A DNA stretch of 64,000 bases from a virus (IMGVR_UViG_3300028048_000042); one strand, 5' to 3'; shown: positions 37,178 through 57,490, counted from the first letter of the stretch. The notes: generated by a model not told the origin, from the letters alone. Numbers and translations are program-made.

Positions 37178-37280
37178 TTAATTTCCACCTCCCTAAGAAA
37201 ATAATAATCAGAAAGTGATTGAATTATGCGAAAATCGTATTAGTTTTTTGAGACTAACTTTAAAGAAATGAGGTACAAAT

Positions 37281-38246
37281 ATGGCTGAGAAGAAAGATGC
37301 TAATGAAAAAAAGAATGACGAGTCTGTAAGAAAAATTATTAAGGACTTGATTTTTGAAGGGCAAAGTGTCCAAACAATTGAATATAAAAATAAAAAATGG
37401 ACATTTAAGACTTTGACCCCAAAAGAAATGAATAAAACATTGGCAATTTCTAATATCAATAAAGATTATGAAGCATATTCACTTACATATAAATTGGAAA
37501 TTCTTAAATCAGCTATCGTTGCCATAAATGATATAGAAGTTAGTAACGAAGCAAAGGAAATGTTTGATAATTTGCCAATAAAAATTATTGATGAATTATA
37601 TGATGAATATTTAAAAATAAGTAGAGTTCTTGTATGCACACAGGATGACTTTGAGGTTATTCGCGATATTTCTAAAAATGATGATACAGCAATTTTGAAA
37701 TTTACTGTTATGAAGGAATTCGGTGCTTTGCCGACAGAACAGCGTGTTAAGGATTTAAATGAACATCAATGGGTTTGGTTATATAACAGTATTATTCATG
37801 AAAGAAATGAACGTGCAAAAGACCGTATAGATGAACTTGATTATTTGGCGTTCTTTGTTAATCCTGAGTTACATAACAAAGTTAAAGAAGCAAAGAAAAA
37901 CAAAGGCGAGAAAAAAGGCTTATTTAGCAAAAGTGGTGTGGAAATGGTAGAAGAACATGATGAAGAAAATCCATACAACCCAAATGTTGTAACTCATTAT
38001 GGCAATACTACTGTTGATGATGATTTCGAAGCTAAATTGAAATTGTTTGTTAATGAAAACGAAGCTACAACTGAACTTGATTCTGATACTCAGAAGGGTG
38101 ATTCTAGCGAATCTCAGGAAGACTTTATCACAAGAGCATTGCGAATGCAGAAAGTTGTTGAACAAGAGAATTTGAAAAAGTTGGAAAAAGATGCTGAAGA
38201 AGCAGGCGTAAATCCTGAGGATTTGGATGGATTTGAAATTAATTAA
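37281..38246 (+). CDS. Tail assembly chaperone (G+T-like long form)
   Basis: Lies between the tube and tape measure genes; N-terminal KKWTFKTLT...LEILKSAIVAIN...IIDELYDEY aligns with 50276 ORF, followed by a T-like LPTEQRVKDLNEHQWVWLY segment. Confidence 0.6.
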   Translation: MAEKKDANEKKNDESVRKIIKDLIFEGQSVQTIEYKNKKWTFKTLTPKEMNKTLAISNINKDYEAYSLTYKLEILKSAIVAINDIEVSNEAKEMFDNLPIKIIDELYDEYLKISRVLVCTQDDFEVIRDISKNDDTAILKFTVMKEFGALPTEQRVKDLNEHQWVWLYNSIIHERNERAKDRIDELDYLAFFVNPELHNKVKEAKKNKGEKKGLFSKSGVEMVEEHDEENPYNPNVVTHYGNTTVDDDFEAKLKLFVNENEATTELDSDTQKGDSSESQEDFITRALRMQKVVEQENLKKLEKDAEEAGVNPEDLDGFEIN

Positions 38247-38264
38247 GGAAGGAGGTTCTTTGTT

Positions 38265-41200
38265 TTGGATAGTGTATTTGATATATACAGTGATAAAAAT
38301 AAAAAAGCTAGTGGCGATGGTAATACATCTGTGGGTAAAATTGAAAATGAAACAGCAACAAAATTAATTGCTACCCAAATTGATAAAATGTCAGAAACTT
38401 TAGAGAATGCAAACAATCAATTTGGACAATTAAAAACTGTGTTTAACGATAACCAATTGCTACCTGCAATGAATCATGTTCAGTCAATGGTTAAAGACTT
38501 GAATGAAGTTAAAACGTTGTTGTCTAATAATTCTGCTACAAGTAATGACCTAAGTCAATATTTTAGTAATGCTTCACAAGATTGTGTTAAAATGGAGCAG
38601 ATGTTTACTAACTTGTCTAAAAGTTCTGAAAACATTTCAAAAATGGCGAATGATAAGTTGGCAGCTTCCGTTTCAACTACTTCTCAAGATGTGGCTCGAC
38701 AAGCACAGGAATTAAAGAATAATCTGAGTCAGATAATGCAAATTCTTGGGCAGGTTCAGAATGCTGTAACAGAAACAACACAAGCAACACAAGGTGCTAC
38801 ACAGGATTTAAATACAGTAAATTCGCAAATTGGACAAACCTTAGAACAGCAAAAAAATAGTGCTACGATAAATCAGACAATAGCACAAAACTTAGGCAAA
38901 ATTTCTGAAAATACTCGTCAGCAATTTGATAGTGTAATGAAAGATTTGTCTGAACGTGCAGGCAACTATGAAAAACTAAATCTTGCTTTTGGAAATATGA
39001 TTTCTGATGCAAATCAAATTGCCAATGCTGAATTAGTAACTGAGCTGGAAAATTTACAACAGCAATTATCGAATGATGATAAAGACGGTTCTCAGCAATC
39101 CATTGCAAATGTTTCAAGAATTGTGGAACAAGGCAATCAGAGGATGGAACAGGTCGCAAAATATCATGAAGAAACGAAAGCGAATAGCGTTGCAAATTAT
39201 AGAAAGTTAATAGAAAACATTAAAGCAACAGAACAAAGTATAACCTCTATATTGCAGCAAAAGGAAGATGTTCTTGGTGTTAAAAACGCAGATGGATTTA
39301 AATCTGAAATTGAGTCGTTAAGAAATTTGAGAGAAGAAGTTTCAAATCAAGCAAAAACTCAAATTAACACAATTATGGAACAACAGAAAAAAGCAATTTC
39401 TGAAGCCATCAATATACAACATCAAAATCAAAATGGTGCTGTGGATAAAAATAGTTCTACATATGATTTGGTTACTTCTCAAATTATGAACGGTCAAATT
39501 CAAGGAATCAATTATGATAGATTGGTTCATGGCGTTGACGATGCTTTAATGGGATTGGAACAAAGTCGTGGTAAAAATTCTCCTTGGTATCAGTACGTAA
39601 CTACAGGTAATTTGCTTGGTAATAAAACTGAGTTAGCAAGTAATTTGCGAAATGTTCAGAGATATGGATATGCAGCACAGCAATCACAAGATGGTCTGCT
39701 AAAAGCTTTAACAGATGACCATTTGACAAATGCTCAAAAAGCACAATCTATTGGACAATTACAAGGTGCTTATAGTCCATTAATAGAGAGTATTAAGAAA
39801 ACTGCTAATGGAATGAATTTCTCCACAGGCGGTGGAAAAGGATTAACTGAACAAGATAAAAAAGTCCTCGATGGTTTTAAGGTACAAGTTGAATCTGCGT
39901 TAGATAATCTTACAAAATCTATAAATGCGATTGAAGCACATGACCCTAATGATGCTACATTGAAACAATTGCGTGAAGAACAAAAAGTTTTGCAAGATAT
40001 TAAAGATAAAGCAGATAAAGCTTCGGAATCTTCAAGTGCATTATCGAATATTTTTAGTACCATGTGGAGTGGATTGAAAAAATTCAAAAATATTCTTGCA
40101 AGTGGTTTGTCATTGCTTGGTCTTGGAGGATTGCTAAATCCTCTCACTCAACTTAAAGCAGGTATTGAACAGGAAGAAGCACAAGGAAAACGCCGTTATC
40201 GTGCAGCAAAATTAGACTTCTATATGGGTACAGGATTAAATGGTGCTCGTATGATTGATTCTGCTGATACGCAAGCTAATTATTATTGGCGTATTACAAA
40301 CGGTATGATTTCTGAGGATGAATTCTTAGATTATAATAGTGCTTTGGCACATGGTGTTGGCGGTCATTATGGTGAAAGTCAGGAAAAGGCTGCAAGCGAT
40401 ATGCACAATATCGCAAAACAGACAATGGCTTTTATTAAGACCAAAGATATTTCTACAAATTCCGCTGCAGATTTTTATAAAAATTTCTATAAAGATGCAG
40501 GTATGTCTGCGGAAGCAGCAAGTGCAGCTTTGGTAAGTGTTGCTCAAACAGCCACCACAGCAAATGTTCCTGTTGAAAAATATGTAAATATGGTTTCTCA
40601 AATGGCAGCATCGTTACGTAACCAAGGTATTAGTGCAGAACAGGTTCAAGGTTCAATGAATGCATTAGTACGTAAAGGATTACGCCCTGAAGATGCACAA
40701 AGTATGGTTGGTAGTTTTGCAAATGCCAATCAAAATATGGCAAAAGATATGAACGCTAGTGCTTTTTGGGGAATGATGGCAGGACAAGGTGGCGACCCAT
40801 TTTCATTAATTGCGGCTGGTTATAAGAGTCATAATGCTGATGGTTCTGTAAATAAACAATGGGCGAACATGATGGGGCAACGTGTGTTTGCTGAAATGGG
40901 ATTCATGGCAACTATCGGTGGAATGGACAACCCATTGGGTCAAAGTATGGCTATTGACGTTTTGACTAATAGAGGATATGGTCGTAAAGATGCAAGTATG
41001 ATTGTTGACGCATTAGAAAAAGGTGATAATGACCTTGTTGCTGATTTGTTCCAAAAAGCAGAAGACCACAAAGACGGTGGTAAAGCTATGCTTGCTGAAG
41101 CTGCTGATGAAGCTGTTGCACAATTAAAACAAGCAGGAAACCAAGTATCTGTGTTCCAAAAAATATCAACTGATATGGTTGAAATGCAGAAACAAATTGG

Positions 41201-44200
41201 TAATGCTATAAGAGATTATTTATCAGAGCCTTTGAAAAAATTTAGAGAAGGTTTTGGTGAAGTCCTTAAAACAATTGTTGATTGGTCTAAAAAATTAATT
41301 GATGCAGTAACAGGTTTGCTAGATGGTAATAGTACAGCAGGTCAAGCGTTATCATGGATGGGTGATAATCCTGGCAAAACCTTTTTAGGTGCTGTAGGAA
41401 CAGGTGCTGTATTATTTGCAGGAGCTAGGGGTCTTAAATCTTTAGGCTCAAAAGCTGTTAATAAAATTGCAGGTGGTGCTACAGGTTCAGTTATATCAAA
41501 AGCAGGTAAACTTGCTCGTGGCGGTTCTATGGGACTCGGTATGCTTGGGGCAGGTCTTGCATTAGGTGTAGGCGGTGTTGCATTAACACAACTTGTTAAG
41601 ATGTTCAGCGATGGAACAGCTACGGTTACTGCTAAAGAACAAGGTACAGCCGCGAAAAATGCAATGGATAACATAATTACAACTTATAATGCTGATAGTG
41701 TTCCTGAATATTCAAGTCCTGATTTACCAAATGATATTGTTAATGATGGTTTTGAATCACCAAATCATTTTATGGATGTTATTAATGGAGACTTTAGAGA
41801 TAAGGGTCTACAAGATGAAATTAATGACTATCAAGAAAAAGACCCATATGAATGGAGTGAGGGAACAAAAACATTAGCTGACAATGCTTTGGATATAGGT
41901 ATGGGCGTTGCCGCGGCGGCAGGATATGCAGGAAGTGCTATGTTTACACGCAATGGTAAAGCAAAATGGTTGCGTAATAAACGAACAATAAATCAAAATC
42001 TTAAAAATTTAAAAGAAGGTGTAAGAGATTTAAGATATGATGGTATTTCATTAGGCACAAGACTTTTCGCAGGTAGTTCTTATGGTAAATCACTTTGGGG
42101 CAATATGGCAAAATCCATGAAGGGATTAAAAGGCACAGGTGCTTTAGGTGCGGCTCTTACTGTTGGTGGTGATGTTTTCAGTGAATATCAGGATGCAAAA
42201 GATAATCCTGATAGATTTACCAATGGACAACGAGCAGGCCGTGTAGCATTTAAATCAGGTGGCGCACTTGTTGGAGGTGCAGTTGGTGGATTTTTAGGCT
42301 CTGCATTAGGGCCTTTAGGCACGATGGGTGGTGCTTGGGCAGGCTCAATGGTTGGCGGTTGGGCAGGCGAAAAATTAATGAATTCCCAAGTTGGTGCCGC
42401 ATTTGGTCTTGCTGATTGGCAAGGTAATGCTCGTCAAAATGAGAAAAAAGTCAAAGATTATGAAAATTCTGTTCGTCAATCAGAAGAATTATATGGTGAT
42501 GCTTCTAAGAGTATCTTGAATTCTAATAATGAAAACCATAAAGCTGTTGGAAAAGCATTAGGCGACCACGGTATAAAGGTTGAAGATGTTACTCGTGAAG
42601 AAGAACAATATATGAATGATTTGTTTAATGAATTAAAATCTAAAGGCTTTAATGAACAGTTGGCAGCATATTTAGCAGCATCGCAAATAACTGTTTATAA
42701 AGAGCAAGCAGAATTTGCGAATAAAAATGATGTTAGTTCTTTAGCTGATAGCTTGAAAAAAATTGGTCGAAATGCTTTGGATGGTGTGTCAGGAGAATCA
42801 GAAGAACAAAAACTTGCAGAACATGAATTAATGGCAAGTGCGCTATTATCAGGTACATTTTATGGCGATAGTGATATTGATACAAAAGCAGATGCTGCTG
42901 ATGCCTTTTTAAGTGCTATTAAAAATCATATTGTTCCTAACGATGAATACTTAAAAAATTGGGTAGCTGTTTATGACGAAGCAGGTATTGAGAATAGTTG
43001 GTCAAAGTATACAGAAGATGGAGAAGAGGCAGAAAAAATAAAAAAATTATACAGAGAATACGCTAAAAAATTTAGAGGTGATGATTGGTTTGATAATGAG
43101 GATAAATTAAAGATGGCAAAATGGGCTGCAATGACGGATTATGCAAGAGACAATCAAGAGTCAGGTGTAGCAAAAGATATAGCTAATGATTGGGCATATT
43201 TTGCTTCACAAAAGTATAAAAAAGAAGTTAATGACCAAACCGCAGCAATCCTTCGAGAGAAGGATGGTACACCAAAGGAAAAGGCAAATCAAATTTATAA
43301 AAATCCATATACTTTAGCTCCAAAAATCAATCCTGCAAGAACAGGTTTGCGAGAAAAATTCAGAAAAACTGTTCGTGAACAATTAGGAAAAACATATGTT
43401 GAGGGGAAAAATGGCCCTGAAGAATTTGACGATAGTGGGTTGATGGAATATGGTGGCAAACAAGCAGGTTTGACATATTTTGGTAGGCAAGCCAACAATC
43501 AATACGATTTTTTCAAAGGAAAGAATGCTTTAAAAAAATCTATAAATGAATTGACCGCAGGCGATTTGATGTTCTTCAAAGGAGATAACGGCGAAATTAA
43601 CCATGTTGGTATGTATGATGGGAATGGTAAAATCGTTCAAGCTTCACAAGGAGAAGGAAAAGTTGTTGAGGGTAATATAAATGATATTTGGTTTCGTGAC
43701 CACTTTGCAGCTGGTGGTGACTTGTCTGCTGTAGGTGCTGAAGCAGGTGCTCCTGAAAGTGGTGACGGCAGTGGTGGTGAACAAAAAACCGTTGCTGAAG
43801 TTTTGGGTGCAAGAGAAAGTCTTTATGACGCACAAATGAAACAAATTGGTGAATTTGCAGGTATGAAAGACAAAGAATTGCTAAATGATAAGATTGCGAC
43901 AGGTCAATACATTTTGGATGGCGTTAGTGCTTTATCTGCAAATGGCAATTATATGTCTATTAGAGGTGTTCGAGATTCTTTCCGTTTAAATTCAGGTGTG
44001 AAAGATAAAGACTTGTTTGGTGTTGGTCTAAAAGGTGCTTTCTCAGGTGATGGCAAAATGCTTTCTGATGCAGGCGTTCTTGAAATGGACGAGAGATTAT
44101 CAAAACAGGCAGGTGAAAAAGACAAGCACACTTATCATTTGAAAGGATATGAAGAAGCAGAAAAGTATTCTTCTGAAATGGATAAGATTGCAGAAGAAAT

Positions 44201-44435
44201 GCATGAAGCTAACAAAGAACAAAGAGAAGTTTATGCAAAAGAAAAAGAAGAAAAAGAAAAAGCCATTGAAAAAATGGATAAGTCTAAACAGACTGCAAAA
44301 ATTTCCATTACGGTTATTGGTAGTGATGGTAAAGAAAAGAAAATAATGGCTACTGAGGATGAATTGAGAGCTTTAATTGCGCAACAGAAAGAAATGATTG
44401 CTCAGTTGCATGAAGAGTTAAAACAAAGAGGATAA
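38265..44435 (+). CDS. Tape-measure-like protein 1 with C-terminal NlpC/P60 domain (catalytic Cys replaced by Asp)
   Basis: Long coiled coil, Gly/Ala-rich TM-like segments; QLGKTYVEG..GPEEFDDSGL...GDLMFF...HVGMYDGNG. Confidence 0.82.
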   Translation: MDSVFDIYSDKNKKASGDGNTSVGKIENETATKLIATQIDKMSETLENANNQFGQLKTVFNDNQLLPAMNHVQSMVKDLNEVKTLLSNNSATSNDLSQYFSNASQDCVKMEQMFTNLSKSSENISKMANDKLAASVSTTSQDVARQAQELKNNLSQIMQILGQVQNAVTETTQATQGATQDLNTVNSQIGQTLEQQKNSATINQTIAQNLGKISENTRQQFDSVMKDLSERAGNYEKLNLAFGNMISDANQIANAELVTELENLQQQLSNDDKDGSQQSIANVSRIVEQGNQRMEQVAKYHEETKANSVANYRKLIENIKATEQSITSILQQKEDVLGVKNADGFKSEIESLRNLREEVSNQAKTQINTIMEQQKKAISEAINIQHQNQNGAVDKNSSTYDLVTSQIMNGQIQGINYDRLVHGVDDALMGLEQSRGKNSPWYQYVTTGNLLGNKTELASNLRNVQRYGYAAQQSQDGLLKALTDDHLTNAQKAQSIGQLQGAYSPLIESIKKTANGMNFSTGGGKGLTEQDKKVLDGFKVQVESALDNLTKSINAIEAHDPNDATLKQLREEQKVLQDIKDKADKASESSSALSNIFSTMWSGLKKFKNILASGLSLLGLGGLLNPLTQLKAGIEQEEAQGKRRYRAAKLDFYMGTGLNGARMIDSADTQANYYWRITNGMISEDEFLDYNSALAHGVGGHYGESQEKAASDMHNIAKQTMAFIKTKDISTNSAADFYKNFYKDAGMSAEAASAALVSVAQTATTANVPVEKYVNMVSQMAASLRNQGISAEQVQGSMNALVRKGLRPEDAQSMVGSFANANQNMAKDMNASAFWGMMAGQGGDPFSLIAAGYKSHNADGSVNKQWANMMGQRVFAEMGFMATIGGMDNPLGQSMAIDVLTNRGYGRKDASMIVDALEKGDNDLVADLFQKAEDHKDGGKAMLAEAADEAVAQLKQAGNQVSVFQKISTDMVEMQKQIGNAIRDYLSEPLKKFREGFGEVLKTIVDWSKKLIDAVTGLLDGNSTAGQALSWMGDNPGKTFLGAVGTGAVLFAGARGLKSLGSKAVNKIAGGATGSVISKAGKLARGGSMGLGMLGAGLALGVGGVALTQLVKMFSDGTATVTAKEQGTAAKNAMDNIITTYNADSVPEYSSPDLPNDIVNDGFESPNHFMDVINGDFRDKGLQDEINDYQEKDPYEWSEGTKTLADNALDIGMGVAAAAGYAGSAMFTRNGKAKWLRNKRTINQNLKNLKEGVRDLRYDGISLGTRLFAGSSYGKSLWGNMAKSMKGLKGTGALGAALTVGGDVFSEYQDAKDNPDRFTNGQRAGRVAFKSGGALVGGAVGGFLGSALGPLGTMGGAWAGSMVGGWAGEKLMNSQVGAAFGLADWQGNARQNEKKVKDYENSVRQSEELYGDASKSILNSNNENHKAVGKALGDHGIKVEDVTREEEQYMNDLFNELKSKGFNEQLAAYLAASQITVYKEQAEFANKNDVSSLADSLKKIGRNALDGVSGESEEQKLAEHELMASALLSGTFYGDSDIDTKADAADAFLSAIKNHIVPNDEYLKNWVAVYDEAGIENSWSKYTEDGEEAEKIKKLYREYAKKFRGDDWFDNEDKLKMAKWAAMTDYARDNQESGVAKDIANDWAYFASQKYKKEVNDQTAAILREKDGTPKEKANQIYKNPYTLAPKINPARTGLREKFRKTVREQLGKTYVEGKNGPEEFDDSGLMEYGGKQAGLTYFGRQANNQYDFFKGKNALKKSINELTAGDLMFFKGDNGEINHVGMYDGNGKIVQASQGEGKVVEGNINDIWFRDHFAAGGDLSAVGAEAGAPESGDGSGGEQKTVAEVLGARESLYDAQMKQIGEFAGMKDKELLNDKIATGQYILDGVSALSANGNYMSIRGVRDSFRLNSGVKDKDLFGVGLKGAFSGDGKMLSDAGVLEMDERLSKQAGEKDKHTYHLKGYEEAEKYSSEMDKIAEEMHEANKEQREVYAKEKEEKEKAIEKMDKSKQTAKISITVIGSDGKEKKIMATEDELRALIAQQKEMIAQLHEELKQRG

Positions 44436-44451
44436 ATGGAAGGATATTGAA

Positions 44452-47400
44452 ATGGCAACTTTACAAACAGCGTTCCAAAAATACGCTACGAATACAGTTA
44501 ACAAACAAATAAAGTCTTCTATTTCTGATGTAAAATCGGCAATAAAGAAGTTGGAAAAAGTTCGTAAAACTTCTATAAAAGATAAACAAGAGTTGTTGAC
44601 TGAAGTTGAAAAATATATAGCGAATCTGCGTACTTGCCTTACAGAATTGAAAAAGTTAGACGAGGTTGATTTTTCAAATGCAAAAATAAAACACCAAGTT
44701 GCACAAAAGGACGCTTTGGAACAGTTGAGAAACTATGAAAATGCGATTTCAAAATATAATATTTCTGTTTTGACTTTGGCAGATTCTCTTAATATTGATA
44801 AAACAAGTATGCAGGCTTTACATGAAGCCTGCATAGCCCCTATGGGGGTTTCAATGTGGCAAGAACTGCTTGCAAGTGTTTCTTTAGCAACAACAAAGAA
44901 TTTCAGTCAAGGGCAATTAGCTTATGAGGAAAATTATCGAAAAACTTTATCTGCATCTATTGGTGATATTGCTTATGATATGTATTTACCGACAGCGCAA
45001 TATAATCCTATAGGTGGAATAACGACACAAGCTGATATTGAAGAAACAGTAAAAAAAGCATTAGACCCTTTTATTGAAGCACAGAATAGGATTATAGAAA
45101 ATGCAAAAGATTTTGAAAATCAAAAGCAAGGAAAAGAACAATTAGCCACAAAGCAAAGATTAGCGTTTTTAACTGAATTGAGTCAAACGATTCAACAGCA
45201 ATATCAAACAGGTACAATTACTACGGATTCTCGTCAAAAAGCAAATAAGCTTTTGCAGATGATGGAAGATTTTAATAATAATCTTGATAAAGCTATTATG
45301 GTAGATATTACACTTTCGGAAGGACAAATGTCTGAATTAAACAGAGAATTTATTAACTGTACCGAAAAACAAAAACAATTAAAAGATTATATTGAAAAAT
45401 TTGATAAACAGATTTTAAAAAATTCAACGGAAAAGATTCAATCGTTAGATAGTATTAATAAAGCTATTATAGATACAATTGAAAGCTTAACTACATCTTA
45501 TTTGGTTTTGATGGATAACAATATTGGAGATATAACAGATTTGTCTCCTGTCTTAAATAGTTATGCTAAATATTTTTCTCAAATCGGACAAGGTGGAGAA
45601 GTAACACAAGGTATTGAAAATGCAATGCGTAATACGTATTATAATACCAAACTTGGAAATGCTTTTTCTTCAGGGAATTTGCAAAAAGCGTACTTGGGGT
45701 TAAATACTATTGACCGAACAGGTTACGAAAATAGATTTTCCACTTATAACAATGAAACGTTGAGAAATAAAATACAACAAGGTATTTACTTAAATGAACA
45801 ATTTAGAAATGATTATAAGGATTTTGGGGAGGTTGGATATAATGGTATAACTGTACAACATGCTCAAAGCACATTAGTTCCTATTGCTTCTCAAAGTGCA
45901 GATGTACATATAGATTTGTTAAAAAATAGTCAACAAAATATTTTATTGACTCAAAAAGATAAAGAAACTCGTCAGTATATTGTGAATTCTGCAAAAAAAA
46001 TAGTTGAAGATATTGACAAATTGCTTTATAGTTTTGATTCATTGGAAGAAAAACCAAAAGCATATGAAGGATTAAAAAAACAAAAAATTGAACTCGAAGA
46101 AGAAATTGAAAAAATTGAAAATATGGGCAGTTCGTTTGACAAATTAAAAAAATTCTTGCAAACGCTTAATTCAATGAAAAATAAAATGATTGGTGGTTTG
46201 GGTGCAATTTTTGGAGCAATGGGTATAGGACAATTATTCCACCCGTTACAGATGTTAGGCGAAATAATCAACCAAATGAATGAAATGGGACGATTGAGAT
46301 ACCAAACGTCTATGGCTGATTTTAGTGCAGGACATAGTATGAATGTGGGGCTAAATGAGTACATGAGTTATACGCTTCCTAAATACTATTATGATTTGTC
46401 TTATGGACAAATTGATAGGACAAAACCTTTGGCAATGTATAAAGGTTTAATTAAAAATGTTGGTGGACATTATGGCGCAAATACAACAAATGACTTATCA
46501 TGGATGGCTTCTCAAATTGTTGCTGATTCAGAATTGTTTGATTTGGGTGATGGAGAAATTTTTGCATTTTTAAAAACCTTCTATAAAGATATGGGAGATA
46601 GTGCTACTGAAGCAATGCAAAAATTGCGTAGCTTGGAAACCTTTGCACAATTATATAACATTCCAATGGAAAAAATGCTGTCGTTAATTAATGGAATGAC
46701 AGAAGGAATGCGTTCTTTGGGTGTATCTTCTCGTGTGGTTCTTAATTCTGTAACAGGATTAGTTCGTATGAATAAAATGCGAATTGAAGATGCCGCTGAT
46801 TTAGTTCAATCTACTGCGACAAATGCAGATAAAATGTCAAAAGATTGGTCACGTAGTATTTTTTGGGGAATGATGAGTCAAATTAATAAGGGCGAACATA
46901 TGGATGACCTTTTTGACCTTGTTTTGGATGGATATAAGTCTCATTTTGCAGATGGGTCTGTAAATGAAAAATATTATGATTCTATGGTGGATAGATTATT
47001 TGCAGAAAGTGAATATTTTGGCACTCGTTGGGGTAGTGACCAAGATATGAATGATACAGATATGGGTTCTCACCTCTTAGACCAAGGTTATAATTTAAAA
47101 CAAACAGCAGAAATTATTCAACTGAAAAAAGAAGGTAAATTAGATGAATTAAAGAAAAAACTTAAAGCTTATGATGAATACAAAGACCCTCTTGCTCCTG
47201 CTGAAAAAACAAAAGAGTTTGCAGGACAGATTAAGACAATTGCAGAACAATTGGCAGAGACAACGAAACTCCAAGCAACTCTTAATAGCAAATTAAATGA
47301 AATTGCACATATTATTGATGAAAAGTTAGGCCCCACTCTTGAAAAAGGCAGAGGATTTATTCATGCAATGTTGAAAAAATATGGAAATGCAATGGCAGGT

Positions 47401-50214
47401 TTAATTGCAGGTGTAGGAGGACTTTTAAATTCACCAATAGGTAAGTTTGTTGGAGATTCATTCGCGAAGCATCCTTTTTTGACTATGGCTAGTGTTATGG
47501 GCGTATACAAATTAGGCAAATACGGTCTTGGTCAAGTGGGAAAAACTGCCAAAGCAGGTAAAATGAGTTTGCCGATGTTTTTGGCGTTAGGCACAACAGG
47601 TTTAATGTCTGCTTTAGTGACAAATGATTATTTGACAGAAAATTTAAAAGCTGAACAAGATGTTACGGATTCAGGTTACGAAGACCCTGCAACTGTATTA
47701 GTACGTATGTTCAATAATGGTACAGCAACAGCTAATATTATTTTTGACAAAGATACAAAAGATGCACAAGAAAATCTTATATGGAGAGCCACAATGGGGT
47801 TGCTTCTAGCAGGTGCTCCATATTTGGCTTATAGATTTGCTTCTCGATTTATGAGGTCAAATCCAAAAAGTGCAAGAAAATTCGATGTATCACAATTAAA
47901 AGAACGTCTAAAGTCTAGGTTAAAACAACTTACTCCCCAACAAAAAAAAGAACTTCAACAATACAAAGAACAAATGATAAGGTGGAGAAATAAGCAAAAT
48001 AGACGAGCACAAGAAATTTATAATACAATGCTAGAAGCACACAGAAAACGTGTTGCAGAAATTATTGCAATTAATGAATATAATGCAAAGGTTAGAGCAA
48101 AAAATAAGGAAATTATCGAAACAAGAATTAGAAGATTAAAAAGATTAAGGCAGTTAAGAAGAAAATCAGGAAAATATTTTAAATTAAGGAATAGAATGCG
48201 TTCTCTTCGAGGTGGATTAAAAGATTTCGGACTTAATTTGCTCGTTTCTTATGGTATTGATTTACTTACAGGTGAAAACCCTGAATCTGTCACTGATGAA
48301 ATTGGCGATTTGGCGTTAGATGCAGGGGCAATGACTGTGCTTTCAAGGAAATTTGGATTAAAAGGTGCGATTGCAGCTCCTTTTGTAACAGCAGGTGTAA
48401 AATCATTCTTGGGAGGTAAAAAAGCAGAAGCATCTCCATTACATAATGATTATTGGCCTTCAAAACCTGAAACACAAGGTACACATAATCCTGCCGAAAG
48501 TCAACGAGAAGAGGAAATGTTAAATTATCAGCAGGAAATGGCAAGGCAAATGAGTATTAATGGCTCATTTTATCGTCAATCTGATGATTGGGATGATATT
48601 TCAGAGAAAATTGGTAAAAGCAATGATGAATTAAAACAAGAAGTAAGAGAATCTTTAGGTAGACATGGTGTTAAATGGGATGAATTATCTGATTATGAAA
48701 AAAGAATATGGACTGACTCATTTAATAAATATCAAGAAATAATGGGCGATTATTTAAAAGCTATTGAACAAGCTACTAAATTAGTTTTGGCTATAAAATC
48801 TTCAAGTTTTAATTCTCAAAGCTATGACCCTGCTGGTTCAGGTAATAATGTATTTAATGCAAAGGTTGTTTATGAAAGATTGAAAGCGGCAGGTTATAGT
48901 GAAGAAGCAACTATTGGTATTATGGCTCGTTTAATGGGCGAACATCACTTCCAAACATCTGATGTTCCTCTCTATGAACCAGGTGGCGGTCTTGGTACTT
49001 GCGGTGGTTTGGGTATTATGCAATGGCAGGGTGAACGTAGAGAAAGATTGATGAAAAATCCCAATTACTTAGATATTGGTGTTCAAGTTGACTTTATGAT
49101 TGATGAAATGAAACAAAAAGGATATGGGCCTGATAAAATGAATCAATATAATGCTAGTGAAGCAGCATATTGGTTTACTAAAGATGTTGAAATCGGTAAT
49201 TTTACAACTGAACAAGAAAATATTGCATCAATCAGAGCATTAAGAGCAAGTAATTTTTCAGGCGCACAACAAACAAAGAAACCCCCTTCAAGTTTTTTAG
49301 GCGGTGGGGGAGGAATAAGATGGCAATCACAGTTTGAAAATGGTGGTAGTGATAGATGGTGTACATCTGCTGCTTTTGGTATGTTATACAATTCATTGCA
49401 TGGTACAACTTATGATGTTAATTATATTCATGCTAATATTTGGAATGGTAATTCACATAGTGTAGATAATATATTGTCAGAGCTTGGATTGCAAGGAAGT
49501 GTTTTGTATGGTAAAGCAGGCTTAGATGCTGCTTTACAAAAAGGAACACCGACATATATGTATTTTCAGGATGATGCTTATAATGCAAAAGTAAATTCAG
49601 GTACTGGAACACACGCAGTAATTATTCAAGCTAATGGTCAAGGAGGATTTACATATTATAACCCTGCAAGGACAAGTGAAAGTGAAGGTATAGGAACAAT
49701 TTCTTACGAAGAATTGGCAAATACAATTAGTGGTAGAACTGAATTCCTTGTACCTGATTCCTTTAATAGTAAATATAGTGGTAAGTTTAATGTTAAGTTG
49801 CCACAGCTCAAACCATACAAGCCAAAAACAATAAAAGAAAATTTCGAAGATAGCATTAAAGCGTATCAAAAAGCAATTGGGTTTGATGGTAAAAAAACTA
49901 TTAAGGGAAGAATTATTAATGGTATGTATGTTGACCCTAATCAAAAATTTGTTTCAATTGAAGATGAAATTAAGAAATTGAAAAAAGATTATGGAGTTTC
50001 ATCAAGCGATGTTACTGCTGCTGAAAGTGAAAAAGCTGTAAAAGATGCTACGAAAGCTAGTTTAGAACAAGCAAAAAAAGTTGCTGATAAAAATTGGGCA
50101 GATGTACAGGCTGCAAGAGAAGCCCAAGGCATTCGAATTAATTCCCTTATCCAAAAGGTCAAAGCCTTGTTAAAAAAATATTTTGATAATGTTGAAATAA
50201 GAAGTGATATTTGA
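44452..50214 (+). CDS. Tape-measure-like protein 2 with phage tail lysozyme and C39-like peptidase domains
   Basis: NAKVVYERLKAAGYSEEATIGIMARLMGE...GLGIMQW.G.RR..L...QVDFMIDE (Phage_lysozyme2-like); WQSQ...WCTSAA...THAV...YYNPA. Confidence 0.8.
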   Translation: MATLQTAFQKYATNTVNKQIKSSISDVKSAIKKLEKVRKTSIKDKQELLTEVEKYIANLRTCLTELKKLDEVDFSNAKIKHQVAQKDALEQLRNYENAISKYNISVLTLADSLNIDKTSMQALHEACIAPMGVSMWQELLASVSLATTKNFSQGQLAYEENYRKTLSASIGDIAYDMYLPTAQYNPIGGITTQADIEETVKKALDPFIEAQNRIIENAKDFENQKQGKEQLATKQRLAFLTELSQTIQQQYQTGTITTDSRQKANKLLQMMEDFNNNLDKAIMVDITLSEGQMSELNREFINCTEKQKQLKDYIEKFDKQILKNSTEKIQSLDSINKAIIDTIESLTTSYLVLMDNNIGDITDLSPVLNSYAKYFSQIGQGGEVTQGIENAMRNTYYNTKLGNAFSSGNLQKAYLGLNTIDRTGYENRFSTYNNETLRNKIQQGIYLNEQFRNDYKDFGEVGYNGITVQHAQSTLVPIASQSADVHIDLLKNSQQNILLTQKDKETRQYIVNSAKKIVEDIDKLLYSFDSLEEKPKAYEGLKKQKIELEEEIEKIENMGSSFDKLKKFLQTLNSMKNKMIGGLGAIFGAMGIGQLFHPLQMLGEIINQMNEMGRLRYQTSMADFSAGHSMNVGLNEYMSYTLPKYYYDLSYGQIDRTKPLAMYKGLIKNVGGHYGANTTNDLSWMASQIVADSELFDLGDGEIFAFLKTFYKDMGDSATEAMQKLRSLETFAQLYNIPMEKMLSLINGMTEGMRSLGVSSRVVLNSVTGLVRMNKMRIEDAADLVQSTATNADKMSKDWSRSIFWGMMSQINKGEHMDDLFDLVLDGYKSHFADGSVNEKYYDSMVDRLFAESEYFGTRWGSDQDMNDTDMGSHLLDQGYNLKQTAEIIQLKKEGKLDELKKKLKAYDEYKDPLAPAEKTKEFAGQIKTIAEQLAETTKLQATLNSKLNEIAHIIDEKLGPTLEKGRGFIHAMLKKYGNAMAGLIAGVGGLLNSPIGKFVGDSFAKHPFLTMASVMGVYKLGKYGLGQVGKTAKAGKMSLPMFLALGTTGLMSALVTNDYLTENLKAEQDVTDSGYEDPATVLVRMFNNGTATANIIFDKDTKDAQENLIWRATMGLLLAGAPYLAYRFASRFMRSNPKSARKFDVSQLKERLKSRLKQLTPQQKKELQQYKEQMIRWRNKQNRRAQEIYNTMLEAHRKRVAEIIAINEYNAKVRAKNKEIIETRIRRLKRLRQLRRKSGKYFKLRNRMRSLRGGLKDFGLNLLVSYGIDLLTGENPESVTDEIGDLALDAGAMTVLSRKFGLKGAIAAPFVTAGVKSFLGGKKAEASPLHNDYWPSKPETQGTHNPAESQREEEMLNYQQEMARQMSINGSFYRQSDDWDDISEKIGKSNDELKQEVRESLGRHGVKWDELSDYEKRIWTDSFNKYQEIMGDYLKAIEQATKLVLAIKSSSFNSQSYDPAGSGNNVFNAKVVYERLKAAGYSEEATIGIMARLMGEHHFQTSDVPLYEPGGGLGTCGGLGIMQWQGERRERLMKNPNYLDIGVQVDFMIDEMKQKGYGPDKMNQYNASEAAYWFTKDVEIGNFTTEQENIASIRALRASNFSGAQQTKKPPSSFLGGGGGIRWQSQFENGGSDRWCTSAAFGMLYNSLHGTTYDVNYIHANIWNGNSHSVDNILSELGLQGSVLYGKAGLDAALQKGTPTYMYFQDDAYNAKVNSGTGTHAVIIQANGQGGFTYYNPARTSESEGIGTISYEELANTISGRTEFLVPDSFNSKYSGKFNVKLPQLKPYKPKTIKENFEDSIKAYQKAIGFDGKKTIKGRIINGMYVDPNQKFVSIEDEIKKLKKDYGVSSSDVTAAESEKAVKDATKASLEQAKKVADKNWADVQAAREAQGIRINSLIQKVKALLKKYFDNVEIRSDI

Positions 50215-50275
50215 CTGTAATTAAATTATTGTTAGAGTAGAAGATTAAAAATTATACCGAAAGGAAGATTATATA

Positions 50276-50713
50276 ATGGCAAAGAAAAAGTCTGATAAAC
50301 TTGTTGCTGATTTACTTGCGGATTTGATTGAAAGTCCACAGGATATTGATTATGTAGAATTGTTTGATAAGAAGTGGGGTTTTCGTCAGATTACAACAAA
50401 AGACCATTTGGGAGTTTTGAAGAAAACACAGGCTCTTAATAAAGATGAAGCTGCTCGTGTTTTTGGTATTACTCTTGAATATTTACGCAATGCACTTGTC
50501 AGTGTCGAAGGTATTATCCTTACTGATGAACAGAAATCTCAGTTGCTTGAAAATATTTCTCCTGCAATGCTGAACGCTTTGTTCTTTGAATTTGAAAAAG
50601 TTTCAAGACGAAAAGCTGATGAACGAATTGAATCCGAAAAGGCAGAAGAAACAGAATCTGATGAAGATGAAGCTGATGAAAAAACAACTAGCAACAATGT
50701 AATTGATGCCTAA
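50276..50713 (+). CDS. Tail assembly chaperone (short G-like paralog)
   Basis: KKWGFRQIT...LEYLRNALVSVEG...MLNALFFEF aligns with the N-terminus of 37281 ORF. Confidence 0.6.
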   Translation: MAKKKSDKLVADLLADLIESPQDIDYVELFDKKWGFRQITTKDHLGVLKKTQALNKDEAARVFGITLEYLRNALVSVEGIILTDEQKSQLLENISPAMLNALFFEFEKVSRRKADERIESEKAEETESDEDEADEKTTSNNVIDA

Positions 50714-50721
50714 AAAAAATG

Positions 50722-50750
50722 AAAGCAAGTGGTTAAACCACTTGCTTTTT
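50722..50750 (+). terminator. Rho-independent terminator
   Basis: AAAGCAAGTGG-TTAAA-CCACTTGCTTTTT. Confidence 0.8.
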
Positions 50751-50796
50751 CTATTGTTTAGTTGTAGAGATTTTTTGTGTTTAGGATGGTGAAATA

Positions 50797-53700
50797 ATGT
50801 CAACAATTGATGAAATTCAATCAAACATTCAAGAAGAAGACCAAGAATTGTTTGATACACTGCAAAGTGTTTTTACTTTAAAAAGTGATATAACAAAAAT
50901 TATTGAAAATAAAAATAATCAATTTTTGCAATTAAAAGAAATGTTGGAATCAATTGCTGATTATGTTAAACAGGAGCAACATTTACGTCAAGTTATTGCA
51001 GAAAAAAAAGTTAATGATTTAGATGAAATTCAACGGATATTTAATGCTCAAAATGAAGCTATGTCCGAATTATATCATGGTTATTATAAGGCTAAAGAAG
51101 AAAGCGACCAAAAATTAGAAGGTTTTATAAGCGATTTAGCGGAGGTTATTGGAGGTCTTACTTCAGCCCATAATCAATTGATAGATGTTGTGAAAAGAGA
51201 TTATCCAAATTTTGGAAATCAAATTAAATTCGTTTCAGCACAACATAAAAAAATAATTGATGCAATTAAAAAAGTATATAATCAAGAAAGACAAAGAACA
51301 ACTGAACAAACACAAAAAATAGATGAATTCATACAGCAGACTCAGCAAGTAAAAGAAAGTGAATCTCTCTCTAATATTAACCGTTCTGTTACGCAGCGAT
51401 TAAATGCTTTGATTAATAAGATTGTTTCAGATAACGAAATATTATTAACCAAAGGCACTTTTGTTAAAAATAATAATCGTGAATATTATCGTGTAAAGGA
51501 TGCAATGGAAGAAATTACACGAAAGCTTAAATATTCTCGTGAGTTGGGGGACGAAGAAAATTATTCAGATAGTTTATCTAAATTGTTAATAAACACGAAA
51601 CAAATTGTTACTATAATGTCGGAAGATTTTAATAATTGGAAAGATTTAAAATATGAGGACATTGCAGGATTTAACAAAAAGATAGATAAATATGATGGAC
51701 TGTCTGCATTAAATCAAGAGATTTTAAATGAATTGAATCCTGATAAATTTAAAGATGAATTTGCAGGGTTTAATGAAGTGATGCGAAATGCACAAAAAAT
51801 CTCAAATGAAAAATTAAAACAATTCATAAGTGATGGAATTAATTCGTATAGACAAAATCCTTTAGGCAAATTTGATTATATTAATGGTAATAGAGGTCTT
51901 ATAGATAGGACAAAAAAAGTTGCCAATCATGTAGATTATCAATCTTTGCATGACCCTGCACATATGAATTTTGCAAGAGCAAGAGCAGGGTATACGAATG
52001 TACTAAATTCAATCCATGAAGAACATTTAGAGGTTGCACAAAGAAGAGCACAATATGCAGGCACTGATAAAAATAGGGATGCTATTATTAATCAGGAAAT
52101 GCAAAAGTTGACTAGGGAAGATTTTAAAAACGGTAGATATACACAACCACTTATAGATTATAATGATAATTTGTTAAAATCTGCCAAGTTAGAAAAAAAA
52201 TCTTCAAAAGAAACCTCTAAAAATTTAGAAGAAGCAATCAAAACTACATATAGTCAAATTTATGCAATTTCGCATTTTGACCCTCAGAGTAAACTACTTG
52301 ATAAACTACGCTCTCAATGCAAAATGTTAGAAGATACAAAGAGAGATGTGGACGCAACACTAAAAGATAAAAAGACAATTCAGCTAAAAGATTTTCTAAA
52401 AAATCCATTGAAAGCAGCAGGATTAGGTACGCTTTTAACGTTGTTAGGTGCAGGAGGATTATTTTCTTTCAATAAATGGAAGAATATGATTAAGAGTCAG
52501 GCTGACAAGTCAGGGCAATTAATGTACAACAACTATCTGATAAATGCTAGTGCAGGTCTACCAATGGGTTATGGAGCATTAGACAGGGTATATAATCAAG
52601 GACGTACATTATATGCTATATCTAATGGCATGGTAGGATTTGAAGCTCCAACAAAAATGTATCATTCGCTAATCAAAAGAGTTGGTGGTGGTATGTATGG
52701 TGGAGCAAAAGACCCACAAGGCTTGTCAGCTATGGCAAAATACATGACATTACCTGCGCAATTATATGATATAAACGAAAACACTTTGGCTGATTTTGCG
52801 AATAGTATGTATAAAACCAACAAAATGAGTTCCCAAGATACATTAGATACACTCAATAGAGTAATGAATGATGCAAAAAGAGCAAATGTACCAATGGAGA
52901 AATATATTAAATTAATTTCTTCGATGGCAACTCAAATGAGACATTTGGGATATAATGGTAGACACGCTGTTGGTATTATGACGCATATGATTAATAGAGG
53001 TATGCGTGTAGAAGATGCTCATGCGATGCAAACATCCATTTTAGGTGTACAGACGAACTATTCTAAGAATAAAAGTAATGCTGTATATGCAGTTATGACA
53101 GGTCAAGCAGGCAACATGTGGGCAGGTATACTAATGAATTTGAAAACGCATGATGCTAATGGCGACCCAATAGGGAATCGCCAAAAAATGATTGGTCAGC
53201 AGATGAAAGCCGAATTAGGATTTTATCAATTTGGGTTTAGTGAAAATCCTGAAATGCAAAGATTTTTGATGGCACAAAAACTGCAAATGATGGGTTTTGA
53301 TAGACAGCGTATTGCACAATTAACAGACACTGCAATTTCAGGTAGTGATGAAGATTTAGGCAAATTACTTGAAGGTTTTGAAGAAGAAGACATAGCCAAG
53401 ACAGAAAAAGCAGCAGACGGATTAAAACGAATGGCAGCAGAATTAAAAACTGTTGGAGCACAAGTAAGCCATTGGCAAAAGATGAAAACCGATATGACTG
53501 TTGCAGCAAATAAAATAGCAGAGAGTTTGGGAAGTCATCATGCCGCAATGCAAGAATTGTCTGAAATGATTCACAATCAAATTAAAAATTTAACACCTGA
53601 GTACACAGAATTTATCAAAAAAATCGGTGAATTACCTGATAAGATAAAGAAATTTAAGGAAGAACATGGTGAATTAACAAGCTTTATATTAGCCCATCCT

Positions 53701-56700
53701 GTGCTTGCACTTGCAGGAGTATTAGGCGGTACATATTTAGGGTATCGTGGACTAAAAGCTTTGGGCAAGAAAGCATTTAGCCATTGGAATGACCCTAAAA
53801 CAGGTAATTCTTCTTCAAATAATGCTAAAAGTAATAAGAAATCATCTTCAAAAGGCGGTGGAAAAAACTCTTGGTGGAATAAAGCTAAGAATGGTGCAAA
53901 AAAAGCGAAGGGTTTGTTTGGCAAAGGTAAACTAGGATTTCTTGGTGGCTTGGCAACAACCTTATTATTAGGTAATGATATTGCTAATGCTAGTGCTCTT
54001 GATAATTATGAAGAGGAAGATTTAGAAGATAAAACTGAGGATGAACTCTCAGTAAAATTCCTTCAGATGTTTGCTACAGGTGAAGCAAAAGCAAGGTTAA
54101 GGAAATCAGATGGTTCACCGATGGAAATTTATGGTGAAACAGCAATGCAAACTTGGTTGCGAAATGAAATTGGTATGTCTGCGCAAGGGTTGATTAGTGG
54201 AGGAATATTTAGTGCTATATTGTTGAAGAAATTGTATGATTTGATAAAACGAAAATATTCCAAACTAAAAAAATTTCCAAAATTACCCCCATTACCCCCA
54301 TTACCTATGAAGGAAAAACTTTTGAGTGGAGTAGAGTCTGTCAAAGATAAATTATCAATGGGAGAATTAGGCTCTATTTTAAAGAATGAAGTAAAAAGTA
54401 GTTCACCGAGTATAGGTATTGATGGAGGAAAAGGTAAATTTGGTTCTACGTTAAAGAATACTGCAAAATGGTCAGGTGCATTTAATTTAATATCTGAATT
54501 TATGGACACTGATTCTCCATATACCACAAGTCAAAAAATTGCAAGAGCAGGTATTGATACAGCAATTGATACACCGATTTATGCGGTAGCTTCAAAAATC
54601 AGTCCGTGGCTTGCTTTAGGATTACCTATAGCTAGTTGGGGAATTGGTAAAATAACAGGCACAGACCCATTAGCGTGGATGCATGAAAAAGCGAAATCAT
54701 ATTTTGGATTATCTAGCGAATTGGATAAATATAACGCTCAATTCTTAGAAACATTGTTTAATGATACAGAAATGGATGCGGATAGTTTCCTAGAATTATG
54801 TGAAAAAAAAGATGAACAAGGGAAGTTAATCAAAGAATACATGAAAAAAAATGGTGTAGACTTTGATAGCATGACCGAAGTAGAAAAGAAAATTTTTGCT
54901 GAAGAAATTAAGAGTTTAGGAAATGCTACAGCTACGTTGGCACAAATTATGGCATTAGCAATAATAGCAGCAAAAGAAGCACAAAAAAGGCGCAAAAACC
55001 CAAATCATAACGGTAAAAAATTAAAACCTTGGGTTGAAAAAACCATAGAAGATTGGGCAAATAGTGCTTTTGATGATAATGATAACATTAAATGGGGCGA
55101 AGCATTAGTAGGTATTGAATGGTTGATTAAAAAGAATTATGAAATAGTTCAAAACCCTGATGCAAGTGATGAAGAAAAACAAAAAGCACAAGACCTTTTA
55201 GGTACATTGTTTAATATGCGTGCAGTTGCCAAATATAAAATTGGTGGAGAAGACCATGATGAAGTTGTAAACGAAATGGTAACAGGTGCGAATGAATCTT
55301 ATGCAGATTGGATAGCAAGCGGTCAGGCAACTAAAAAATTACCTGCTAATATGCAAATTGTATTAAATGATGGATATAAGGCAAGTATTCAAAAAACAGT
55401 AGATAGTTTAGATTGGGGCTTTGTAAAAAAAACAATGGAAGGTTCTGAATTTAGTTTTGAAGACTATTTTGATGAATATATTGCTGATTATATGGGGCAA
55501 TGGAGTGGAGATTTTTTCAATAATAAAGACTTGGTTAAACAAGCATATATCGAAGCAAAATCTCAAAAAATACTTGAAGAAGCTAATCCTGACCAAGTAG
55601 AAGATGTAGGTGCGGACTCCCCATTACCTGAAATAACAAATCCTATTGATTCAGAGGGTAACGAAGGAACTATTAATGGTATGACTGTATATCGACAGTT
55701 TGACCCTCGTTGGGCTGACAATGTTATTGCAGGTAGCAGCACAATGCGCGAAGCAGGGTGTGGCCCTACATCATTTGCTATGGTTGCTTCTGCACATGGC
55801 TCACATTATAGCCCTTGGCAAATTGCACAAATATTTGCACAAAGAGGAATTTATATTCCTGATGTAGGTAGTGATGCAAGTAAATATCCTGAGTTAGCAA
55901 GAGAAATGGGTTTTGAGCTTATACCGACAAAAGACAAAGATTATGTAAAACAGATGTTAGCATCAGGACACCGTGTAGTTGCAGCGCATGGCAGAGGTAA
56001 GTTTACAAAAAGAGGACACCACATGGTATATGCAGGATTAAATCAAAATGGTAAATTGTTAATTGCAAATCCAGGTCGTGATGAATCTGTATATACAGAA
56101 TATGATGTAGACGAAGTATTAAATGATGCAGGTGGTGATATAGATTGGTATGTAGATACAGGTGAAGGTACAGTTATAGATGGAGCTTTGGGTAATTTAA
56201 ATTTGGGTAATTTAAATTTAAGCGGTTTAGCTTCATACAAACCACTTACGATTAAAGAAGCACACGAACAAAGTGTTGCGGCATACCAAAAAGCAATAGG
56301 ATTTAGTGATAAAAATGCAGTACAAGGTCGAATAATCAATGGTATGTATGTAGACCCAAATCAGTCATTTGTTTCTATTGAGGAATTAAAAAAACGAATA
56401 ATTGCAGAAAGAAATGGCGAAATCTACCAATCAAAAGAATTGGAAAAACCACCTTCTGAAAAAGAAATTAAAGATAGTGGAGAAGATGCTGCAAATAAAT
56501 CTGTTCAAAGAGAATCAGAAAAAAAAGCAAAAGAAGCTGAAGAAAAACGTAGAGTTTTACAATTAGCTATTCAAAAGCAGAAACAACAAGAAGAGCAAGA
56601 AAAGGCAAAAGAAGCTGATGTAGCACATCTAAATGTATATGGTGAATTAAAAAAAGGTATGAGTATGGCTGATTTTCATCGAGAATTGGAAGAAATATTA

Positions 56701-56748
56701 TCATCAATGAATTTTGACCCTGATACTGCAATTGTAGATTTTGATTGA
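50797..56748 (+). CDS. Tape-measure-like protein 3 with C39-like (Peptidase_C39_2) domain
   Basis: YRQFDPRW...AGCGPTSFAMV...GKFTKRGHHMV...IANPG; shares its core with proteins 1 and 2. Confidence 0.8.
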   Translation: MSTIDEIQSNIQEEDQELFDTLQSVFTLKSDITKIIENKNNQFLQLKEMLESIADYVKQEQHLRQVIAEKKVNDLDEIQRIFNAQNEAMSELYHGYYKAKEESDQKLEGFISDLAEVIGGLTSAHNQLIDVVKRDYPNFGNQIKFVSAQHKKIIDAIKKVYNQERQRTTEQTQKIDEFIQQTQQVKESESLSNINRSVTQRLNALINKIVSDNEILLTKGTFVKNNNREYYRVKDAMEEITRKLKYSRELGDEENYSDSLSKLLINTKQIVTIMSEDFNNWKDLKYEDIAGFNKKIDKYDGLSALNQEILNELNPDKFKDEFAGFNEVMRNAQKISNEKLKQFISDGINSYRQNPLGKFDYINGNRGLIDRTKKVANHVDYQSLHDPAHMNFARARAGYTNVLNSIHEEHLEVAQRRAQYAGTDKNRDAIINQEMQKLTREDFKNGRYTQPLIDYNDNLLKSAKLEKKSSKETSKNLEEAIKTTYSQIYAISHFDPQSKLLDKLRSQCKMLEDTKRDVDATLKDKKTIQLKDFLKNPLKAAGLGTLLTLLGAGGLFSFNKWKNMIKSQADKSGQLMYNNYLINASAGLPMGYGALDRVYNQGRTLYAISNGMVGFEAPTKMYHSLIKRVGGGMYGGAKDPQGLSAMAKYMTLPAQLYDINENTLADFANSMYKTNKMSSQDTLDTLNRVMNDAKRANVPMEKYIKLISSMATQMRHLGYNGRHAVGIMTHMINRGMRVEDAHAMQTSILGVQTNYSKNKSNAVYAVMTGQAGNMWAGILMNLKTHDANGDPIGNRQKMIGQQMKAELGFYQFGFSENPEMQRFLMAQKLQMMGFDRQRIAQLTDTAISGSDEDLGKLLEGFEEEDIAKTEKAADGLKRMAAELKTVGAQVSHWQKMKTDMTVAANKIAESLGSHHAAMQELSEMIHNQIKNLTPEYTEFIKKIGELPDKIKKFKEEHGELTSFILAHPVLALAGVLGGTYLGYRGLKALGKKAFSHWNDPKTGNSSSNNAKSNKKSSSKGGGKNSWWNKAKNGAKKAKGLFGKGKLGFLGGLATTLLLGNDIANASALDNYEEEDLEDKTEDELSVKFLQMFATGEAKARLRKSDGSPMEIYGETAMQTWLRNEIGMSAQGLISGGIFSAILLKKLYDLIKRKYSKLKKFPKLPPLPPLPMKEKLLSGVESVKDKLSMGELGSILKNEVKSSSPSIGIDGGKGKFGSTLKNTAKWSGAFNLISEFMDTDSPYTTSQKIARAGIDTAIDTPIYAVASKISPWLALGLPIASWGIGKITGTDPLAWMHEKAKSYFGLSSELDKYNAQFLETLFNDTEMDADSFLELCEKKDEQGKLIKEYMKKNGVDFDSMTEVEKKIFAEEIKSLGNATATLAQIMALAIIAAKEAQKRRKNPNHNGKKLKPWVEKTIEDWANSAFDDNDNIKWGEALVGIEWLIKKNYEIVQNPDASDEEKQKAQDLLGTLFNMRAVAKYKIGGEDHDEVVNEMVTGANESYADWIASGQATKKLPANMQIVLNDGYKASIQKTVDSLDWGFVKKTMEGSEFSFEDYFDEYIADYMGQWSGDFFNNKDLVKQAYIEAKSQKILEEANPDQVEDVGADSPLPEITNPIDSEGNEGTINGMTVYRQFDPRWADNVIAGSSTMREAGCGPTSFAMVASAHGSHYSPWQIAQIFAQRGIYIPDVGSDASKYPELAREMGFELIPTKDKDYVKQMLASGHRVVAAHGRGKFTKRGHHMVYAGLNQNGKLLIANPGRDESVYTEYDVDEVLNDAGGDIDWYVDTGEGTVIDGALGNLNLGNLNLSGLASYKPLTIKEAHEQSVAAYQKAIGFSDKNAVQGRIINGMYVDPNQSFVSIEELKKRIIAERNGEIYQSKELEKPPSEKEIKDSGEDAANKSVQRESEKKAKEAEEKRRVLQLAIQKQKQQEEQEKAKEADVAHLNVYGELKKGMSMADFHRELEEILSSMNFDPDTAIVDFD

Positions 56749-56752
56749 TGTG

Positions 56753-56784
56753 AAAACACTCCTTAATTTAAAAGGAGTGTTTTT
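56753..56784 (+). terminator. Rho-independent terminator
   Basis: AAAACACTCCTT-AATTTAA-AAGGAGTGTTTTT. Confidence 0.8.
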
Positions 56785-56822
56785 AATTTTCTTAGTATAG
56801 AGTTTGTTTATATAGTTTATAG

Positions 56823-56871
56823 AAAAATAAAGCAAAATATAGAAATATTTTCTATATTTTGCTTTATTTTT
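56823..56871. repeat. 23-bp perfect inverted repeat at the IS left end
   Basis: AAAAATAAAGCAAAATATAGAAA-TAT-TTTCTATATTTTGCTTTATTTTT. Confidence 0.85.
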
Positions 56872-56893
56872 ATTTTTGAAGGAGTGATTTGTA

Positions 56894-57454: not shown

Positions 57455-57490
57455 GATGTAAAAATTTTTAATTAAAGGAGGTGAATTAAA

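Follow-up and report, generated by a model that had tools for sequence, protein, structure and literature searches.

Phages normally carry a single tape-measure gene, whose product forms a homo-oligomer and sets the length of the tail. Why, then, does one tail module carry three tape-measure genes? We addressed this question in a 64,000-nucleotide stretch of viral DNA (IMGVR_UViG_3300028048_000042; hereafter the window), which is the tail module of an uncultured relative of Bacillus phage G from livestock gut. The window holds homologues of gp173–175, gp177, gp178, gp179, gp180 and gp181, then the three paralogues T1, T2 and T3, then homologues of gp184 and gp185. The features that bear on the question are as follows.

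30702–32900, + strand: tail sheath, gp178 homologue (PHROG sheath E = 3e-39; 48% to gp178)
32982–34317, + strand: two tail-tube paralogues, gp179 and gp180 homologues (55% and 39% to gp179 and gp180; 45% to each other)
37281–38246, + strand: GT chaperone of 321 aa in one frame (its first 110 aa match both gp181 and the chaperone profile)
38265–44435, + strand: T1, tape-measure paralogue, 2056 aa (core ~aa 625–1068)
44452–50214, + strand: T2, tape-measure paralogue, 1920 aa (core ~aa 597–1034)
50276–50713, + strand: free-standing G-type chaperone, 145 aa (32% to 37281–38246, E = 1e-12)
50721–50749, + strand: terminator-like hairpin after free G (by folding)
50797–56748, + strand: T3, tape-measure paralogue, 1983 aa (core ~aa 557–993)
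58804–60687, + strand: single gp184 homologue, putative tail-tube initiator (PF23980, E = 5e-7)
60707–64000, running past the window end, + strand: single gp185 homologue, putative baseplate hub (role by position)

The T1, T2 and T3 ORFs are all intact on the + strand, and a ribosome-binding site precedes each. Pairwise BLASTP showed 30% identity between T1 and T2 over 589 aa (E = 2e-49), 23% between T1 and T3 over 1073 aa (E = 2e-41), and 27% between T2 and T3 over 444 aa (E = 2e-30), with a common core of ~440 aa at 23–30% identity. The initial annotation had proposed a collinear core from short motifs; every quoted motif was found in the same order, and the homology of the core is significant, with E values from 2e-30 to 2e-49. 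The further stretch that it had seen in T2 and T3 was recovered as a second BLASTP match near the C-terminus (53% over 81 aa, E = 4e-19). An assembly artefact was ruled out by one contig from the run that is probably the source (bovine gut), which covered 37001–57000 with zero differences, and by a pig-gut strain from a separate study that had the same gene order on a single 76.8-kb contig. Pseudogene decay was likewise ruled out: comparison with one close strain revealed purifying selection on all three genes, with 20–26 amino acid changes per 1400–1490 aa versus 109–130 base changes per 5.1–5.7 kb. Exact short contigs within T1, T2 and T3 were present in a rumen RNA run (one study, contigs only, DNA carry-over possible).

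By slot and homology, T1–T3 are predicted tape-measure proteins of the phage G gp183 type. They lie between the tail chaperone and the baseplate genes, and gp183 was the only match to the core among 50,697 phage records; T1, T2 and T3 each matched gp183 residues 1034–1538 (E = 1e-27 to 7e-10). The gp183 protein is a 2893-aa virion tape measure in a 450-nm tail and has glucosaminidase and M23 domains (PMC8570332). Across gp173–gp185, phage G (Donellivirus gee, NC_023719) resembles the window in gene order (sheath, two tubes, chaperone, tape measure, gp184, gp185), in the homologous core (24–27% identity) and in the C-terminal wall hydrolases. In contrast, the tape measure of phage G is a single protein of 2893 aa and its G/GT is frameshifted, whereas the window has three paralogues of ~2000 aa, with GT in frame and G as a gene of its own. 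At phage G’s 1.56 Å per residue, 2000 aa would correspond to ~310 nm. Six family members of 3650–4400 aa (P0063, P0084, P0085, P0089, P0082, P0080) would have tails of 570–690 nm at the same ratio.

PhageMin_Tail (PF10145) matched 7 of 17 cores weakly (best E = 8.5e-7), below the curated cut-off in the case of the T1 core (19.9 bits vs 33.2). The predicted core model was all-helical and matched gp183 and many annotated tape measures (structure match E = 1e-8); the PDB held no match to the core by sequence or by fold. Membrane-like segments and a basic patch had been claimed for each protein. The segments are present but moderate (Kyte-Doolittle peaks 1.5–1.8 in T1–T3, like gp183), and only T2 has a strong patch (+15 per 30 aa, versus +8 in T1 and +10 in T3).

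We then asked whether the triplet is peculiar to this virus. A profile search returned relatives in 108 clusters at E < 1e-30, and layouts were read from the loci fetched. Two layouts were seen. In the single-copy layout (phage G, L005, L006, L014, L027, L028), G is followed by a slippery A-run, T and one tape measure. In the multi-copy layout, an in-frame GT of 304–330 aa is followed by T1, T2, a free G of 122–174 aa and T3; it was read in L002/L004, L003/L013, L007/L010/L011, L009, L018, L022, L025 (the longest contig, 500 kb), a 274-kb NCBI record and the pig-gut strain. That is, the order GT-T1-T2-free G-T3 is kept in about ten lineages, and the triplication that a survey of relatives was suggested to look for is conserved. 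One 172-kb contig carried only two copies, although its chaperone genes are arranged alike. This two-copy relative, L024 (9058–22111), has GT, Ta (1997 aa), G and Tb (1855 aa), with Ta and Tb cores 50% alike and ends of T2 type and T3 type; it may be either an intermediate or a reduced and homogenised triplet.

The tree placed every multi-copy protein in one clade (UFBoot 100), with T1, T2 and T3 clades at UFBoot 81, 75 and 97 and the two-copy pair together at 91; its branching gave no firm order of duplication. No relative was found in GTDB genomes, which therefore gave no clue to the host.

The chaperone genes changed along with the copy number. In all multi-copy loci GT is a single ORF in which G is fused in frame to T. 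The slippery A-run that precedes the stop in single-copy outgroups is absent from the GT junction of the window and of most relatives, where one frame is open throughout. The free G gene, which is paralogous to the N-terminal portion of GT, occupies the same place in every multi-copy locus, and a hairpin with a T run follows it in 11 of the 11 loci folded. In the rumen RNA run a 472-nt contig crossed the free G gene and ended at the hairpin (contigs only, silent on level and ends). In these gene arrangements the G/GT frameshift is replaced by two genes, an in-frame GT and a separately terminated G. Neither the 145-aa gene between T2 and T3 nor the loss of the frameshift was in the initial annotation.

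Phage lambda, which requires ~30 G per GT (PMC5009743), likewise makes a short chaperone and a longer form with a common N-terminal domain (gpG/gpGT; PMC5009743); unlike in lambda, the two forms here come from two genes 13 kb apart, and their ratio is presumably set by transcription. By analogy, the excess of G could come from the separately terminated G gene. T4 is a named exception to the G/GT frameshift (PMC5009743), and the present clade is a natural case of a G/GT ratio set without one. A T-rich stretch followed by TAGA, ~25–40 bases upstream of the G and T3 starts (50215–50275 and 50750–50796) and found in most relatives, is a possible late promoter; a promoter scan showed no excess over shuffles. 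The L003 lineage alone has an additional terminator-like hairpin between T1 and T2 (L003:16747–16812).

The C-terminal regions of T1–T3 carry the following cargo domains and segments.

43386–43691, + strand: T1 NlpC/P60 cassette (Pfam E = 9e-13)
48856–49194, + strand: T2 slot A, Phage_lysozyme2 glycosidase (E = 2e-13)
49312–49761, + strand: T2 slot B, C39-like cysteine peptidase (sub-threshold in Pfam)
49810–49986, + strand: T2 segment of ~55 aa after the cargo, where the swapped cassette has its right edge; co-evolves with the T3 copy
55687–56073, + strand: T3 cargo, C39-like peptidase (Peptidase_C39_2, E = 2e-7, above the Pfam cut-off)
56230–56406, + strand: T3 copy of the co-evolving ~55-aa segment

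The claim that the three proteins differ in cargo was borne out in that all the listed domains are present, but T2 and T3 both have C39-type domains. For T2 slot B, which has no Pfam call, Cys and His align with those of C39 domains (HHalign P = 6e-4, Atlas features 0.91). In T1 the catalytic Cys is replaced by Asp at aa 1723 (codon GAT, 43431–43433), a change common to one close strain; P0002 and P0004 retain the Cys. Judging by this residue, the T1 NlpC/P60 domain of the window is probably inactive.

Across relatives T1 has one slot that is NlpC/P60, M23, M15-like or empty, T2 usually has two (an SLT or GH73-like glycosidase in slot A, then an M15-like or NlpC peptidase in slot B), and T3 has one or two, with GH73-like or SLT glycosidases as counterparts of the T3 cargo (M15-like and GH73-like domains were assigned from purpose-built profiles and weak Pfam matches). 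The cargo is the fastest-changing part of these proteins and is exchanged between strains that are 95–100% identical. In T2 of four close strains, two glycosidases and two peptidases occurred in each of the four possible pairings, and cassettes were replaced in frame by others of near size (993 by 942, 358 by 379 and 531 by 528 bases) between flanks ~98% alike.

These data speak against complementary glycosidase and peptidase activities as the purpose of the triplet, as had been suggested. T2 alone has both classes in 12 of the 14 sequences scored, as do single-copy relatives such as gp183, and T1 is retained with a probably dead cargo in this window and with none detectable in four relatives. 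Because T1 is kept without working cargo, and because T2 and the single copies combine both classes, the cassettes are therefore not the reason for three genes.

Chain lengths and chain ends gave more direct evidence on how the three proteins relate. Within one genome the longest-to-shortest ratio was 1.04–1.19, and the median within-genome pair ratio was 1.05 versus 1.28 for other family members at equal core identity, whose lengths run from 1404 to 4393 aa. A permutation test on length, which ignores kinship, gave p = 0.0002 (p = 0.014 without L003). In L003 all three genes are longer, via changes at different places. With independent contrasts, T2 and T3 lengths covaried (r = 0.84, p = 0.001, with a contribution from one short branch), and T1 length covaried significantly with neither T2 (r = 0.51, p = 0.11) nor T3 (r = 0.15). 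The similarity in length noted at the outset holds, then, to within 4–19% per genome, but covariation corrected for kinship holds for T2 and T3 only.

The ~55-aa segments of T2 and T3 were 0.52 identical within genomes versus 0.35 when shuffled (p = 5e-5, with 2 of 13 pairings inferred across contigs), whereas the cores behaved oppositely. Because synonymous sites are saturated, the segments appear to be held alike by selection, as would be expected if both docked on equivalent sites of one partner; the likeness within genomes counts in favour of co-assembly. Recent gene conversion was rejected as its source (136 of 233 codons identical vs 129 expected, with an excess in L011 alone), and older conversion is possible. 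Short T2/T3 joints in the contig comparison were dismissed, having sides under 40 letters that reflect the common segment. A T1 homologue of the segment was apparent by eye only (HHalign probability 1%), and a length test anchored there was set aside.

The conserved ends differ: a strand and long helix in T1, helix-strand in T2, strand-helix-strand in T3, and strand-helix-strand-helix in the single copies, which weakly suggests that an ancestral terminal module may have been partitioned among the three copies (profile probability 1–22%). At the C-terminus of T1 lie a conserved block of 90 aa and a last, coiled-coil-like helix, neither of which T2 or T3 has; the model of the T1 C-terminal region was of low confidence (pLDDT 55). 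A complex prediction of the three C-terminal regions scored 0.08 and was weighed neither way.

We consider it probable that T1, T2 and T3 form one mixed tape-measure bundle inside a single tail of ~300 nm. This reading fits best because the module has one sheath, one initiator and one hub gene (in this window and the relatives’ flanks, with a second module elsewhere possible), together with three full-length, matched chains that have distinct ends. The initial annotation’s hetero-oligomeric tape measure is thereby kept as the best reading, with the triplication conserved, but not enzyme complementarity as its purpose. That known tape measures are trimers or hexamers also counts for the mixed bundle: cryo-EM showed a trimer for diffocin CD1366 (PMC11329794) and six chains with three C-termini for phiTE (PMC11972413), and in both the C-termini sit in the hub (PMC11329794, PMC11972413). 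The present proteins share with these a mostly helical chain, a globular helical domain predicted ahead of membrane helices, and presumably a hub-anchored C-terminus; they differ in that one gene supplies all chains of CD1366 and phiTE, whereas here three genes would supply them. A likeness of design, not of sequence, is found in the jumbo phage phiKZ, where gp131 paralogues fill symmetric positions in hetero-hexameric fibres (PMC13250141), although those fibres lie outside the baseplate and are not a ruler in the tube.

For T1–T3 we infer location in the virion, co-assembly, stoichiometry, channel role and enzyme activity, and a mixed bundle could work as follows. The three would have diverged from one tape measure of the phage G type and would lie side by side in the same tail tube at 1:1:1 or 2:2:2, each running from an N-terminus at the neck to a C-terminus at the hub of a ~300-nm tail. 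Free G, made from its own terminated unit, would coat the chains, and the in-frame GT would connect these with the tube protein; what the G/GT frameshift did would have passed to gene duplication. On contraction the chains would be ejected, the cargo cassettes would refold and cut peptidoglycan, and the common core with the hydrophobic helices could form the DNA channel. The copies would have been retained owing to their specialised ends, with the cassettes as swappable extras. A stricter version, an obligate hetero-trimer (or 2:2:2) with each of three ancient paralogues, their ends complementary, in a defined position, exchangeable cassettes and the frameshift dissolved in the same duplication, we put forward tentatively, as a serious possibility.

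Several observations count against the mixed bundle. T1 length does not covary significantly with the others, the spread reaches 15–19% in two genomes, profile comparison gives little backing to a partition of the terminal module, and one relative with two copies indicates that three are not obligatory for the clade. Some weight goes to a single ruler (T1, or the T2/T3 pair), with the remaining proteins ejected or associated with the tip to serve as channel and enzymes: T1 length is uncoupled from that of T3, T1 has terminal elements of its own, and the two-copy genome holds T2-type and T3-type ends only. We nevertheless judge this unlikely, since all three proteins are at full ruler length, including a poorly conserved N-terminal helical part of 550–750 aa that a protein other than a ruler would not obviously need, and since the lengthening in L003 affected all three.

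The initial annotation had also raised particles with alternative tape measures as a way to broaden host range; each particle would carry one type (or a random mix), and the population could enter a wider range of cell walls. The rapid exchange of cargo between near-identical strains would fit such host-driven selection, and T3, lying behind a terminator, may be expressed separately. Frequent loss and re-ordering would then be expected, yet order and number are stable over 25–45% orthologue identity; T1 persists with a dead or missing cargo, the conserved ends differ between the copies although a single hub gene is seen, and no switch is evident, the IS element after T3 being missing there in relatives. 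We regard this as less likely than the mixed bundle, and indeed quite improbable. Joining of the three end to end (5959 aa, a tail of ~900 nm) seems very unlikely. Members of 3400–4400 aa do imply very long tails in the family, and the distinct ends could serve as linkers, but each copy repeats the whole layout (helical N-terminal part, core, hydrophobic helices, cargo, tip segment), and both the matched lengths and the co-evolution of the T2 and T3 tip segments would be left without a reason. We know of no contractile tail of ~900 nm.

How many chains a tape measure has (three or six), and what becomes of them after ejection, is hard to settle because identical chains are indistinguishable. 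If the mixed bundle is correct, three distinguishable chains would allow peptide counts and cryo-EM to settle the stoichiometry and to show which of them determines length, plugs the hub or makes the channel. In the literature, with subscription journals outside coverage, we found no description of several or mixed tape measures in one module. Relative to the initial annotation, the new points are the in-frame GT with a separate G, the T1 NlpC/P60 domain that lacks its catalytic cysteine and the in-frame cargo swaps; the parts are all of known kinds. The cassettes amount to a pool of wall hydrolases turning over between strains of jumbo phages common in cattle and pig gut.

Other features of the window were also recorded. 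An IS607-type element (serine resolvase and TnpB) lies between T3 and the gp184 homologue (56894–58711) and is missing there in L004 and L025. An HNH endonuclease and an N6/N4 DNA methylase lie between the tube genes and GT (34469–36769), a site that in relatives holds other inserts (TnpB, RNA ligase) or none. The region 2738–20124 is probably a cluster for DNA or virion modification: it contains at least four radical-SAM genes (BLAST finds six related ORFs), together with glycosyltransferases of the GT8, GT4 and GT2 families, a carbamoyltransferase and a domain resembling citrate lyase ligase. Upstream of the sheath gene are two proteins with Ig-like (CarboxypepD_reg) repeats (23500–24621 and 27032–27805), the second of which is a gp174 homologue.
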